A stretch of 64,000 nucleotides of DNA, taken from IMG/VR virus record IMGVR_UViG_3300023073_000004, positions 1,113 through 65,112 of that record. The stretch is one strand, 5' to 3'. Of the stretch, positions 9,182 through 47,794 are shown piece by piece. Positions within the stretch are counted from its first letter, which is position 1; the number at the start of each line of letters is the position of its first letter. The position numbers were made by a program, and so were the translations under genes. The DNA comes from a virus. Below the pieces are notes generated by a model that was given only the letters and a program-made list of their open reading frames with translations, was not told the origin of the DNA and searched no databases.

Positions 9182-9591
9182 AACCCCGCCCTTTCCAGCC
9201 GCCCAATCGCGTCGTCGAAGTGGTCGAGGAGGGGGACGGGGTCGGCGATGAGACCGCGAAAGAACCGCTTGCGCATGCCGCTAAGTCGCCTTTCGATCTT
9301 CTGGCGCCTGGCCTCTCCGAACCGATCGGCAAACCCCGCGAAGTCACCAACACGAAAGTCGTCCAACGCGCGCTCCTCAACGTCTAGGCCATCGCCTTTC
9401 CCGCCGTGCATGTGCGACCAAGCGGCCCCTGCGCAGACCCCGCAGATTGTGCCGAATGGCGCATTGCTCAGACGACGTCCGCCGCGGTCCGTGTACCAGG
9501 ACATGTAGAGCACCACCCCGCAATCCAGCAGCTCCAGCATGGCATCGCGGGACTCTTTGAGCAGTTGTGAGGGCTTGATTTGAAGGGTCAT
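9178..9591 (-). CDS. Hypothetical protein
   Basis: MTLQIKPSQLL...; ATGA overlap at 9588-9591. Confidence 0.55.
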   Translation of the reverse strand: MTLQIKPSQLLKESRDAMLELLDCGVVLYMSWYTDRGGRRLSNAPFGTICGVCAGAAWSHMHGGKGDGLDVEERALDDFRVGDFAGFADRFGEARRQKIERRLSGMRKRFFRGLIADPVPLLDHFDDAIGRLERAGL

Positions 9592-9857: not shown

Positions 9858-10248
9858 GGTTCTCCTTCAGCAACCGCGCGAGGCGGCAATCGGAGGCGTG
9901 GCCAGTCTTGCTCAGCGTGACGCCTGGCGGTGGCTCATATGCGGGGTCGGAGCCGCCGCAGAAATGGCAGACAGGCTCGCCGATGTTGTGCGACACGTGC
10001 GGGAACTCCACCGCCTTCAGCACCTCCCGCATCTCCTGGGCGGAGGTGAGTGATGCGAGAATTAGAGAACGGAGTCGCGTGCGTTCGTGGAAATAAGCCC
10101 CAGCGCCGTCTACGTGCGCGCGGACCAGGGCATCCAGTGCGCCCTCTTCCACGCGGATAAACATGCCGTAGAAACCGCGCGCTATGTCGTCCAGTGAACC
10201 CCACCACGTTGCGACGAGTGGGTCGGCGAAGTTGATTTCGGCGCTCAT
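9850..10248 (-). CDS. Hypothetical protein with CxxC and HxxxC motifs
   Basis: CHFCG...HASDC; coupled. Confidence 0.55.
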   Translation of the reverse strand: MSAEINFADPLVATWWGSLDDIARGFYGMFIRVEEGALDALVRAHVDGAGAYFHERTRLRSLILASLTSAQEMREVLKAVEFPHVSHNIGEPVCHFCGGSDPAYEPPPGVTLSKTGHASDCRLARLLKENHA

Positions 10249-26839: not shown

Positions 26840-27068
26840 CCGACTGAATCGCGAAGAAATCCGCCAGATCCTCGCCGAGGTGGTCGACATCGCGCGCCCT
26901 GTCGTCATGACGACCGACCAGCTCTGCGCGGCGCTGCACATCACGCGGCCGACGCTGCGCAAGCAGATCGCCAAGGGGCTGCCCATGCATTCGCTGGGAC
27001 CGAAACTCGACCGGTTCATCTGGTCCGAAGTCGAAGCGTGGATCAAGGCACAGGAGGGAGCGGCGTAG
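26832..27068 (+). CDS. xis: Excisionase (AlpA/HTH_17-like)
   Basis: MTTDQLCAALHITRPTLRK...LP...RF.WSEVEAWI; immediately upstream of the integrase. Confidence 0.75.
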   Translation: MTDRLNREEIRQILAEVVDIARPVVMTTDQLCAALHITRPTLRKQIAKGLPMHSLGPKLDRFIWSEVEAWIKAQEGAA

Positions 27069-28465
27069 TGGCTATCGTAACCAGGAAAAACAAGAGCGGG
27101 CCCGTCCACTGGGTGGTGCTCCGAGTCGACGGCAAGTCGACCTGGCGCAAGGCCGGCAGCGGCAAGGTCATGGCCGAGGCGAAGGCGCTGGAGTCCAAGT
27201 GGAAGGGCCAGTTGAAGGCCGGCACCTACGACAAGGCCGAGGCGCTGCCCGAGATGCCGACCGTGGCGGAGTATGGCGCACACTGGCTCCGGAAGCGCTC
27301 CAACCGTCGCGCCAGGGATGACGCGCGCCTGTTCCGTCTGCACGTCGAGCCGCAGTCGATCTCGAGCGAGCGCTTGACCGACGTTCGGCCGCGCCATGCC
27401 CTGGAGCTCGTCGAGCAGCTCCGGGCGAAGGGGCTTGCCGACAAGACGATCTCCAACGTGGTCGCCGTGCTCCACACCATGTTCCGCGACGCCATCCTGG
27501 GCGAGCGCGCCTACACCCAGCCGATGGTGTTGCCCAAGGAGATGCTCAAGCGCCGCCGCAAGAAGGAGCCAGAGATCTACCAGCCGGGCGAGTGCTTGGC
27601 GCTCATGCGAAACGAGCGCATCCCGGCCCCGGTCCGGGTGCTCTGGGCCATCCTGTTCTGCACCGGGGTTCGCCAGGGCGAAGGGGTCGGCCTGCGCTGG
27701 AAGGCCGCCCAGGAGGCCCTGGGCATGAACGCCCTGCACATTCGCGAGCAATACGACGGGGCGCCCCTCAAGACCGACACGTCCCGGGTGGTTCCGGTCC
27801 ACCCCGAGCTCGCGCCCGTCCTGACCTGGTGGGCGACCGAGGGCTGGCTGCTTTGGGTGGGTCGTCGACCCGGGCCCGACGACTTCCTGGTCCCGGCCGA
27901 GACCGGCGTGCCGCTCACCAAGGACGCCAGCTACAAGGCGCTCCGGCGGTCGTGCGAGGCCATCGGCGTTCCGTGGCACGGCGTCCACGGCACGCGTCAC
28001 ACGTTCATCAGCCTGTGCAAACGCGGCGGAGCGGACCACCGGAACCTGCGCACGATCACCCACAACCCGCTCGGCGACATCGTCGATGGCTACACGCGGC
28101 AGGACTGGGAGCCGCTCTGCGCGGTCGTTCGCTGCCTCTCGTTTGATCAGGATCTACGGATTTCGCTGCCTTCAGGAAACCACGGGAAAAATCCTTTCAT
28201 CAAAAATGCATCTGTACCCCTTGTTTTAGCTGGATTGCCAGAAAACACGAAAGCAGAGCCGGGTCTAGCACCCGACGCTTCCGCCACGAAATCAGCTGCG
28301 CCAGTAACGCGATCTAACATCCGATCTAACAGTGACCGTCGGAGGCTCACGATCGGGGCATTTGCGCTGGGCTACGTGGCTCGCTCCATGCCCCGGCTGG
28401 GCCTCCCGAGGGGCGACTGGGTCGGACGCGCCGAGGCCGCTGTGGCCAGCCTGGAGGCCGCATGA
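27068..28465 (+). CDS. int: Tyrosine integrase with a C-terminal extension containing attP
   Basis: Catalytic R (TGVRQGE), K (PLKT), HxxR (HGTRH), H (THN), Y (DGYT); GTG start overlapping the xis stop. Confidence 0.92.
   Translation: MAIVTRKNKSGPVHWVVLRVDGKSTWRKAGSGKVMAEAKALESKWKGQLKAGTYDKAEALPEMPTVAEYGAHWLRKRSNRRARDDARLFRLHVEPQSISSERLTDVRPRHALELVEQLRAKGLADKTISNVVAVLHTMFRDAILGERAYTQPMVLPKEMLKRRRKKEPEIYQPGECLALMRNERIPAPVRVLWAILFCTGVRQGEGVGLRWKAAQEALGMNALHIREQYDGAPLKTDTSRVVPVHPELAPVLTWWATEGWLLWVGRRPGPDDFLVPAETGVPLTKDASYKALRRSCEAIGVPWHGVHGTRHTFISLCKRGGADHRNLRTITHNPLGDIVDGYTRQDWEPLCAVVRCLSFDQDLRISLPSGNHGKNPFIKNASVPLVLAGLPENTKAEPGLAPDASATKSAAPVTRSNIRSNSDRRRLTIGAFALGYVARSMPRLGLPRGDWVGRAEAAVASLEAA
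28142..28331 (+). other. Putative attP: core CCCGACGCTTCCGCCA (28271-28286) with AT-rich spacer and arm repeats
   Basis: Core resembles tRNA-Ser/tRNA-Sec 3' ends (..CGCTTCCGCCA); direct repeat CGATCTAACA at 28310-28319 and 28322-28331; related GATCTAC at 28151; local AT-richness. Confidence 0.7.
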
Positions 28466-28605
28466 CCTCCCCCCTCCCCTGCCCAGGCTGCGCCCACCTG
28501 GCCCCCGCCGATGCAGCCCTACTGCCGAGCGGCTGGTGCTGTGTCGGCTGCAGCTCCGTCGAGGCCGTGGCCTGGGCGCAGCTGGGGGAAGGGAGGACGG
28601 GGTGA
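28462..28605 (+). CDS. Small Cys-rich protein
   Basis: MTSPLPCPGC...CVGC; ATGA/GTGA coupling. Confidence 0.5.
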   Translation: MTSPLPCPGCAHLAPADAALLPSGWCCVGCSSVEAVAWAQLGEGRTG

Positions 28606-46180: not shown

Positions 46181-46551
46181 TGGCGCTCTTCACGCCCGAA
46201 GAGGTCATCGCGCTTCTGTCGGACCCGGATTGGAGACAGCCCGCCCTCTGGCGCACCATCCGCACCGACGTCGCCGAAGACGCGGCGGAGCCGTTGCAGA
46301 ACGCGACGACGGACGTGGCCTGCTTCGCCGTCAAGCTGCCCACGGACCGCGTCGGGGACGAAACCCGCCACTCCTCGACAGATGAGCAGCCCGAGGGTTG
46401 CTCGATCTTCTACGTGTCGCCGCCTGCCGGAGTCACCCCGAGCAAGAAGGACATCCTGGTCATCGGCGAGCGCGAATACAGCATCGAGAGCCTCGATCTG
46501 CTCGCTCCGGCCGGGACGCTGCTGCTCATCACTGCTACGGTGTACGAGTAA
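46180..46551 (+). CDS. Head closure/stopper protein
   Basis: Size and position; ends YSIESLDLLAPAGTLLLITATVYE. Confidence 0.65.
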   Translation: MALFTPEEVIALLSDPDWRQPALWRTIRTDVAEDAAEPLQNATTDVACFAVKLPTDRVGDETRHSSTDEQPEGCSIFYVSPPAGVTPSKKDILVIGEREYSIESLDLLAPAGTLLLITATVYE

Positions 46552-46750
46552 TGAACCTCGCCCTAAAGGACGAGGCTTTGCGCCTCAACTCCACGGCCTC
46601 CGCGCGCCGCTTCAACGTTGGACACGATGGGCCGCATTACTTCGGCCCTGGATGCGACATTGCGGGCGCCGACGATGTCGGCGTGCTCCGCAAAACCGCA
46701 CCCGGTGCAGACGAACTCGGCCTGGCTCCGGCGATTCGCCTTGTCGATAC
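46535..46750 (-). ncRNA. Predicted omegaRNA (reRNA) scaffold plus guide; boundaries approximate
   Basis: TnpB omegaRNAs are known to overlap the tnpB 3' end and right end, with the guide taken from flanking DNA (here TACTCGTACACCGTAG). Confidence 0.55.
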
Positions 46751-47794
46751 ATCCACAGACTGGACACGTTCTGCTCGTGTTGCGCGGATCGACGAGCACG
46801 ACAGGGACGCCCGCGAGGGCGGCCTTGTATTCGAGGAATGCACGCAACTGGAAGAACGACCACCCGTGCAGATGCGCTCGCTGAGCCTTTTTCACCGTTG
46901 CCCGGGCGCGGATGCCTTGGAGATTCTCCAGTGCGATTCCTCGATCGGTGCCCTTGGCCTTGCGAACGATTTGCTTGCTGATGACGTGGTTGGTGTGAGC
47001 GTGGAAATGCTGTTCTCGCCCGCGAAGCCTTCGGAGGTGGCGCTTGGCGCTCTTGGTGCCGCGGCGCTGAAGAGCAGCGCGGAGCTTTCCAATGCGCGAC
47101 CGGACAGCCAGCGTCGTCTCTCCAGAGTGCACCTCGGTGTCGGAGTCCACCGCCAGGTTGCGGATTCCCAGATCGACCCCAAGCCACCCCTCGGGATCGA
47201 TCGGAGCTCCGTCAGGCACCTCGACGGTGACGAACAGGTAGAGCTTGCCGCGGCGGTAGACCAGATCGGCCTGACCGCGCACGCCGTCGAGTCGAGCTGC
47301 ATGGTAGGCGCCTATGGCGCACGGGACGACAACGCGCCCGTCGAGCGCGAGCAGGCTCAGGCGGTCAAGCCCGTTCTTGAAGCTATACAGGCGCTGGTCA
47401 TACGGGATGGCGCCGAGCACCTTGAAGCGGCAGAGCTTCGAGCGATCGCGCTTGTAGACCTCGCAGACTTTCGAGATGGCGCGCACTGTGTGCTGAGCGG
47501 ACAGGCCGAAGCGCTCTCGGATCTCCCGGTAGTAGAGCTTCTGGAGCCGGATCTTGTCGGCCGACTGAATCTCGAATGCTCTCTCGGCCAACCACGAGCA
47601 CGCCTCGTTGACCCGTCGGATCGTCGCGAGCAGGCGAGCCCTTTCTTCCGGGGACGGCAGCAGTTTCACCGTGGCAATGAGCTTCACGGCCATAGACGTA
47701 GCACGTCTAAGCCGGCGCGCAACAGGCCAGGCCGCTTCCTCCCCGCCGTGAACGACGGGGCTTCCGCGGCTGCCAAGGCACAGGGAGGTAGCAC
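46551..47794 (-). mobile_element. Non-autonomous IS200/IS605-family (TnpB-only, IS1341-like) element
   Basis: tnpB; right-end hairpin CCTCGCCC-TAAA-GGACGAGG (46556-46575); left-end hairpin CCCCGCCG-TGAA-CGACGGGG (47741-47760); ATGA at both junctions; no tnpA. Confidence 0.85.
46563..47693 (-). CDS. tnpB: RNA-guided endonuclease TnpB
   Basis: RuvC-I GVDLG, RuvC-II IALENL, zinc finger CPVCG/CTGCG, RuvC-III HADIVGARN; all three acidic residues intact. Confidence 0.95.
   Translation of the reverse strand: MAVKLIATVKLLPSPEERARLLATIRRVNEACSWLAERAFEIQSADKIRLQKLYYREIRERFGLSAQHTVRAISKVCEVYKRDRSKLCRFKVLGAIPYDQRLYSFKNGLDRLSLLALDGRVVVPCAIGAYHAARLDGVRGQADLVYRRGKLYLFVTVEVPDGAPIDPEGWLGVDLGIRNLAVDSDTEVHSGETTLAVRSRIGKLRAALQRRGTKSAKRHLRRLRGREQHFHAHTNHVISKQIVRKAKGTDRGIALENLQGIRARATVKKAQRAHLHGWSFFQLRAFLEYKAALAGVPVVLVDPRNTSRTCPVCGCIDKANRRSQAEFVCTGCGFAEHADIVGARNVASRAEVMRPIVSNVEAARGGRGVEAQSLVL

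Follow-up and report, generated by a model that had tools for sequence, protein, structure and literature searches.

In the myxophage Mx8, the phage attachment site (attP) lies within the integrase gene, and integration makes a new 3′ end of this gene and alters the behaviour of the enzyme (PMC6070905). The integrase is called IntP in the phage and IntX in the prophage (Tojo et al., 1996; Magrini et al., 1999; both as summarised in PMC6070905). The different forms alter recombination behaviour in Mx8, and the integration of phage Mx9 is said to follow a similar principle (PMC6070905). Here, a tyrosine integrase gene (int) of the Mx8 family is described, which was found in a window of 64,000 nucleotides (nt), positions 1,113 to 65,112 of the 65,548-bp IMG/VR virus record IMGVR_UViG_3300023073_000004. 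This window is soil phage DNA of the myxobacterial type. A sequence-only reading of it, made before the present analysis, had proposed that attP lies inside int and had named Mx8 and Mx9 as precedents, for which the review cited above gives support. The mechanism is the one known from Mx8, and the window holds a further member of this group, the sole unusual feature of which is an orphan core devoid of a T-loop. The locus probably carries a functional attP of the Mx8 type, and integration at this site would swap the last ~59 residues of the integrase and detach the genes downstream.

A probable attachment region read through by the integrase gene

The int product was assigned to the tyrosine recombinases by Pfam (PF00589, E-value 3e-9), and its residues R202, K235, H307, R310, H332 and Y342 were unchanged across 13 aligned integrase homologs. 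Mx8 Int was its best match in the phage collection (33% identity, E-value 2e-32), with a pairwise E-value of 5e-41 over 339 amino acids (aa). The sequence-only reading had noticed that the open reading frame (ORF) continues for about 120 codons past the catalytic Tyr through an AT-rich patch; in fact, 123 codons remain after the Tyr codon (28091-28093), and the low-GC patch is present. The first of these codons encode a conserved segment that can also be aligned to Mx8 Int and that, to judge from this alignment, probably still belongs to the folded enzyme. The enzyme proper would end about 35-45 residues past the catalytic Tyr.

The GC content was 0.45-0.58 over about 28150-28349, as against 0.62-0.78 on either flank. 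The third-position GC of int was 0.92 up to the Tyr codon, 0.41 over 28196-28342 and 0.85 over 28343-28462. Therefore, the composition of the patch is not set by codon usage, and the last 40 codons look coding in the int frame. Moreover, the int frame was the sole one open across this 49-codon patch, each of the other two frames being interrupted by 3-4 stops.

This region has the anatomy of an attachment (att) region, composed of a P arm, a 28-nt core and a P′ arm (Table 1). The features picked out by the sequence-only reading, namely a 16-mer motif on the 3′ side of the core, a mini-stem and direct repeats, were all recovered at their positions. The P′ arm carries two exact 10-nt direct repeats, the first of which begins 26 nt past the discriminator position, and no further exact copies of this repeat were found in the 64-kb window. 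The same reading had taken the DNA for the free, non-integrated form of the phage, which is in agreement with the placement of int mid-way along the 65.5-kb record and with the completeness of 100% given by CheckV.

Relatives of the integrase and the position of their cores

Relatives of the integrase were drawn from IMG/VR, genomes and soil metagenomes, plus Mx8, and amounted to 101 integrase loci, in each of which the Tyr codon was located and the stretch 45-400 nt downstream was checked on both strands. An RNA-gene 3′ end was found past the Tyr codon in 77 of the 101 loci, belonging to transfer-messenger RNA (tmRNA) in 46, to tRNA-Asn in 30 and to tRNA-Asp in one, which was Mx8 itself. This end lay within the int ORF in 70 of the 77 classified loci. 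The census suggests that this myxobacterial integrase family, which is large and for the most part uncultured, has an intragenic core as a rule and targets mainly tmRNA and tRNA-Asn.

The identity of the relatives to their target runs from the first T-loop base through the 3′ end, the T-stem giving the flanking symmetry, and both orientations of the core relative to int were represented. For example, the integrases of an IMG/VR locus and a metagenome locus (L058 and L136) are 83% identical in DNA, yet the 24-nt tRNA-Asn core common to both is oriented oppositely relative to int; the att cassette can therefore flip between close relatives.

The homologs of the window integrase were all environmental, and the genome loci close to it all came from Polyangiaceae metagenome-assembled genomes (MAGs). 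In a quick maximum-likelihood tree, the window integrase was sister to its closest homolog, P0002 (69-71% identity; support 99), within a clade of 10 rows (support 100) and a larger one of 25 rows (support 97). Seventeen of the 25 rows were classed as tmRNA, with the core on the same strand as int. By our own reading, two further rows with the peptide GFDSPRLH would hold the tmRNA end in a different frame, since P0008 and L123, the latter with a tmRNA end, are nearly identical. The close tmRNA-targeting relatives retain the tmRNA 3′ end over 21-23 nt, beginning with the T-loop, and the peptide GSIPGAST of P0002, P0003, P0009 and others, which aligns to GLAPDASAT in the window integrase, corresponds to the in-frame T-loop-to-acceptor sequence of tmRNA. 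Two other close homologs, P0004 (388 aa) and P0006 (391 aa), end ~20 residues short of the core position; they may represent prophage forms, or variants in which attP lies past the end of int.

The att region of the window occupies the position of the cores of these relatives, in agreement with the proposal of an attP within the gene of this Mx8-family integrase. Its T-loop equivalent begins 173 nt past the Tyr codon, and the corresponding distance in same-strand relatives is 167-209 nt, with medians of 172-178 nt. Similarly, an exact direct repeat of at least 7 nt at 10-15 nt spacing was present in 31 of the 66 distinct family flanks, as compared with 1.7% of shuffled ones. The spacing of these family repeats was nearly always 12 nt, and they started 24-47 nt out. 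The P′ pair of the window (10 nt, spacing 12, start 26) falls at the family mode, and an echo of the P′ repeat, RSN..SN, occurs in the P0002 peptide at an equal codon distance. For these two reasons, the att architecture is considered intact and in register, and the earlier interpretation of the repeats as arm-type sites fits that of the family.

Exchange of the integrase C-terminus in relatives

In eight loci, a complete tmRNA or tRNA-Asn gene, identified by ARAGORN, lay on the opposite strand directly after int, and these loci are integrated forms. The Int tails of three integrated tRNA-Asn loci measured 57-61 aa, as against a median of 106 aa in loci with a fragment only, and the medians of non-integrated tails across the family were 106-126 aa.

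The exchange could be followed in two pairs of near-identical loci. The identity is 96% between L079 and L126 and 91% between L081 and L132, and in both pairs the similarity stops 192-198 nt past the Tyr codon, in the final bases of the block of tmRNA identity, with nothing in common beyond this point. Past the break, the sequence of L079 and L132 has two direct repeats (the P′ arm), and that of L126 and L081 has a hairpin-plus-T-run terminator that is homologous between both. The same terminator was also found behind a displaced tmRNA fragment elsewhere in the L079 genome, and a second displaced copy was found in L081. The terminator was assigned to the host side because of this homology and of its presence after displaced tmRNA fragments. 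The Int C-termini of both pairs are entirely different past GAST, and the pairs are read as attP and attR forms. The junctions of related prophages thus break exactly at the homologous point, which bears out the claim of the sequence-only reading that integration rewrites the C-terminus.

In L081, a Polyangiaceae MAG, the tmRNA 3′ fragment and its terminator occur twice downstream of int (9199-9261 and 10019-10077), ~820 nt apart, which suggests successive ssrA insertions.

By analogy with these relatives, the window ORF would cross the P arm after the end of the enzyme proper, then the 28-nt core (28259-28286) and the P′ arm with its repeats (28310-28331), and would end in a 40-codon coding-like tail. 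Recombination at the core, with the crossover junction predicted at about 28284-28287, would keep the int promoter, the catalytic domain and the core at one prophage end, joined to host sequence. The last ~59 codons, the following ORF with its CxxC pairs and the genes beyond would pass to the other prophage end, away from int. The free phage and the prophage would, as in Mx8, make integrases with different C-termini. We infer that the window copy is active and that the strands are exchanged at this position. The phage-form tail aligns with the P0002 tail, last residues included, and the C-terminal ending LEAA is common only to the window integrase and P0002. This ending differs from the LAA of the local tmRNA tags, and its role as a protease tag, raised by the sequence-only reading, is a guess.

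The core and the search for its target

The core looks like a tmRNA 3′ end with an exchanged T-loop. It matches the 3′ end of Polyangiaceae tmRNA at 19 of 28 positions, and the loop of 7 nt accounts for six of the nine differences (Fisher p 0.0014): the half-sites are kept at nine of their 10 positions and the loop is changed at six of seven. The core half-sites are inverted repeats of each other with a 7-nt spacer between them, which is the usual core geometry of tyrosine recombinases. The tree and the positional alignment show the window core as a probable descendant of a tmRNA-type core. It would be a derivative of the tmRNA 3′ end of the sister lineages, in which the half-sites and the acceptor-like part were retained and the 7-nt T-loop, the likely overlap, was replaced. 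Because of this combination, we think that canonical ssrA is no longer the target of the phage and that a retargeting has taken place.

The sequence-only reading had likened the 16-mer to the 3′ end of tRNA-Ser(UGA) or tRNA-Sec, preceded by a T-arm-like mini-stem. The mini-stem does stand at the position of a T-arm, but its loop is no T-loop, and no tRNA or tmRNA fragment was reported by Rfam over 28000-28600 at E-values up to 10. A tRNA end on the minus strand of the window, as in Mx8, was also considered and none was present. The likeness to tRNA-SeC (selenocysteine tRNA) held for the last 11-12 nt, but the full 16-mer was present in no tRNA or tmRNA found. The tRNA-SeC genes (ARAGORN) ending in the last 12 nt of the window core belonged to Acidobacteriota, Desulfovibrionaceae, Syntrophomonadaceae and one Myxococcota MAG, and of 121 Polyangiaceae genomes, 25 had a tRNA-SeC gene ending in its last 11 nt. 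When the core was aligned locally with complete tmRNA and tRNA-SeC genes, no match extended past these 11-12 nt at the 3′ end. The ends of tmRNA and tRNA-SeC resemble each other, and only two positions differ in the last 11 nt; since these two positions alone separate them, the tRNA-SeC match is suggestive and not compelling. The second of the two 11-nt repeats that flank the core starts on the CA of CCA.

Searches for the target were made at several levels. A canonical T-loop followed by the first 13 nt of the motif (CCA omitted), searched in one genome per species of 185,579 species, gave 56 matches, all of them coding-like and none in a tRNA or tmRNA. In five Polyangiaceae genomes, matches to the 16-mer with up to two mismatches were no more numerous than those of a reversed-pattern control, and a search for the tRNA-Ser-type geometry in 151 Polyangiaceae genomes gave one tRNA-like match. 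In IMG/VR, 18-mers over the P side plus core and over the core plus P′ side returned three chance matches without other similarity to the window, and the pattern of the arm-repeat pair returned only tandem repeats and chance matches in IMG/VR and in one genome per species. When the att region was compared by BLAST with 383 Polyangiaceae and 401 Myxococcota genomes, the best E-value was about 0.001 per genome, which is chance level. The best match, of 36 nt at 86%, was read by eye as the coding region of a tRNA thiouridylase (mnmA) and hinges on one rare codon. No lysogen of the window phage was found in IMG/VR, in the species genomes or in the 383 Polyangiaceae and 401 Myxococcota genomes. Two Polyangiaceae genomes (G312 and G103) contain copies, 75% and 69% identical, of a TnpB element of the window (46551-47794), and this may point, weakly, to a host in or near Polyangiaceae.

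Weighing of the alternative explanations

Several points weigh against a functional attP within int. The core has no canonical T-loop on either strand, unlike those of all 77 classified relatives, and could be a decayed site. No attB, attL or attR of the window phage was found by exact patterns in IMG/VR and the species genomes, or by BLAST in the 383 Polyangiaceae and 401 Myxococcota genomes. In addition, the tmRNA core and arm repeats of P0002 are deduced from its peptide only, and the tRNA-SeC match of 11-12 nt is short and, given how little separates it from the presumed ancestral tmRNA end, suggestive. Such observations could be explained by a relic, that is, by a core decayed from a tmRNA-type attP in a phage that integrates poorly or not at all into ssrA, with the long ORF merely persisting. 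This would account for the nine differences from a tmRNA end that is intact in all close relatives, for the lack of a target in about 780 Myxococcota genomes and for the finding of no second phage or prophage with the window core in IMG/VR or among the top 40 protein homologs. Decay is nevertheless quite improbable, since the integrase is intact with every catalytic residue present and its ORF stays open over a low-GC patch in which the other frames are closed. Moreover, the arm repeats are free of mismatches and keep the register of the family, the tail is coding-like and common to P0002, and the changes are concentrated in the loop and not evenly spread.

The same concentration of changes, with the half-sites conserved as an inverted repeat around the spacer, would suit an integrase that still binds tmRNA-like half-sites and whose 7-nt overlap now fits another site outside RNA genes, avoiding ssrA. 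A precedent comes from phage Ms6, which, according to PMC1762012, is sent to other T-loops by an altered attP core. Such a swap of the overlap is possible, but we lean against it: all 77 classified relatives target RNA-gene ends, the left half-site is not retained in the attP of other same-strand relatives, and no site with the overlap and half-sites was found, the best being the 36-nt match at chance level. It is unlikely that a host tRNA-Ser(UGA) or tRNA-Sec gene ends in the 16-nt motif and is the site of integration, with the phage restoring the tRNA from its own copy. The tRNA-SeC gene is the best named candidate, being one whose last 11-12 nt are shared with the window in several phyla, and two distant relatives (L177 and L191) carry a tRNA-SeC-like end within their tails. 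The asymmetric 3′-end sublocation is a recognised class of tRNA-gene (tDNA) target (bioRxiv 10.1101/2020.11.02.365908). However, the survey of 185,579 species genomes found no tRNA or tmRNA with a canonical T-loop and the first 13 nt of the motif, and the tRNA-Ser-type end occurred in only one of the 151 Polyangiaceae genomes. As to tRNA-SeC, the identity does not go beyond 11-12 nt, and any longer alignment with its 8+5 geometry would require a 1-nt gap. In addition, the family cores begin at the T-loop, integrase subfamilies are reported to retain their sublocation (bioRxiv 10.1101/2020.11.02.365908), and a crossover in the acceptor strand, a sublocation otherwise unused by the family, would be required. 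The flanks of tRNA-SeC in 12 Polyangiaceae loci also have no P′-like sequence.

A functional Mx8-type attP therefore remains the preferred explanation of the locus. As a tentative extension of it, which retains some plausibility, the phage may be a natural retargeting intermediate. Within a clade that targets the tmRNA gene, its integrase, arm sites, half-sites and spacing would be as in the ssrA-specific sister, with the 7-nt overlap replaced and three acceptor-side changes making the last 11 nt equal to the tRNA-SeC end, and its integration site would now be selC or a new one outside RNA genes.

Neighbouring genes and coordinates

The ORF listing gives an alternative upstream GTG for int at 27038; the start was placed at 27068 because the homologs begin at residues encoded from this position and not from 27038. 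This GTG shares one base with the TAG stop of a small ORF with a helix-turn-helix (HTH), a candidate excisionase. Its match to Pfam HTH_17 (E-value 1.1e-4, 22.8 bits) lies under the 27-bit cut-off, and its similarity to Mx8 Uoi is weak (E-value 0.089). Downstream, int and the ORF with two CxxC pairs share the bases ATGA, in which the int stop and the ATG of this ORF overlap, and the stop of the ORF overlaps a further GTG, an arrangement by which int is probably translationally coupled to this gene. No tRNA genes were found in the 64-kb window.

Table 1. Features of the int locus (positions in the 64,000-nt window)
Feature	Position	Strand	Description or basis
Candidate excisionase, HTH ORF, 86 aa	26808..27068	+	Position of Mx8 uoi
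Tyrosine integrase gene (int)	27068..28465	+	GTG start, TGA 28463-28465, 465 aa, Mx8 family
Conserved post-Tyr protein segment	28094..28195	+	W347, P349, L350 and C351 invariant, G373 nearly so (13-homolog alignment)
Candidate P-arm sites, two exact 10-nt direct repeats	28128-28137 and 28162-28171	+	Repeat search
Low-GC att region (P arm, core, P′ arm)	28140..28342	.	Read through by the int frame
Core-flanking 11-nt direct repeats	28246-28256 and 28285-28295	+	10/11 identical, 39-nt spacing
Core homolog, 28 nt	28259..28286	+	Half-site, loop equivalent, half-site, acceptor-like strand, G, CCA
Core half-sites, 5 nt	28259-28263 and 28271-28275	+	
T-loop equivalent, 7 nt	28264-28270	+	
Acceptor-like strand, 7 nt	28276-28282	+	
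G	28283	+	
CCA	28284-28286	+	
Mini-stem	28260-28264 and 28270-28274 (arms)	+	5-nt loop; T-arm position
16-mer motif	28271-28286	+	Same position in the sequence-only reading
Phage-form Int tail, ~59 aa, predicted to be replaced by integration	28287..28462	+	Third-position GC, alignment to P0002
Candidate P′ arm-type integrase sites, two exact 10-nt direct repeats	28310-28319 and 28322-28331	+	12-nt spacing
47-aa ORF with two CxxC pairs (zinc-ribbon-like)	28462..28605	+	Third-position GC 0.87

Significance

An attP within int acts as a built-in record of the phage state, the free genome and the prophage encoding different integrases. To the family described above, the window adds a member whose core matches no RNA gene any longer. 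If this integrase is active, the comparison with its ssrA-specific sister would make the switching of integrase targets directly testable, and the enzyme could become a new integration tool for Polyangiaceae, a family in which genetic manipulation is difficult. If the retargeting is true, it would also show how few core changes are able to move a heterobivalent integrase to a new address with its C-terminus still wired to the site.

Comparison with known systems

The window and Mx8 have in common a homologous enzyme, including the W..LC segment past the Tyr, the uoi-int layout, with a small upstream gene (in the window one with a sub-threshold HTH match) whose end overlaps the start of int, and a C-terminal extension that exceeds 100 aa and crosses a lower-GC att region, in which an in-ORF core is followed by direct repeats. 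The tail of the integrase comprises 179 aa in Mx8 and 123 aa in the window. The Mx8 tail holds the full T-arm and acceptor of tRNA-Asp as its core, antisense and in frame, whereas the window core is placed on the sense strand and lacks the T-loop. In Mx8 (locus L122), read in the tRNA sense, the tRNA-Asp core is followed by a likely tRNA terminator hairpin and then by a pair of 11-nt repeats at 11-nt spacing, all of them within the int ORF, on the other strand.

The tmRNA-targeting integrases of Polyangiaceae prophages and islands, which form the clade of the window itself and for which no published name was found, agree with it in strand, core offset, arm-repeat spacing and tail end, and differ in that the tmRNA end is kept there, whereas the window departs from it at nine of 28 positions. 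The SSV-type integrases of archaeal fuselloviruses also have their att site within the int gene (PMC5861418). However, these enzymes belong to an unrelated family with a non-canonical catalytic tetrad, and their int body is split and inactivated on integration, whereas in the window only the post-catalytic tail would be exchanged. Finally, unlike the T-loop-sublocation integrases of Williams' classification, as cited in bioRxiv 10.1101/2020.11.02.365908, the window keeps the stem-like symmetry of the site and loses the loop.

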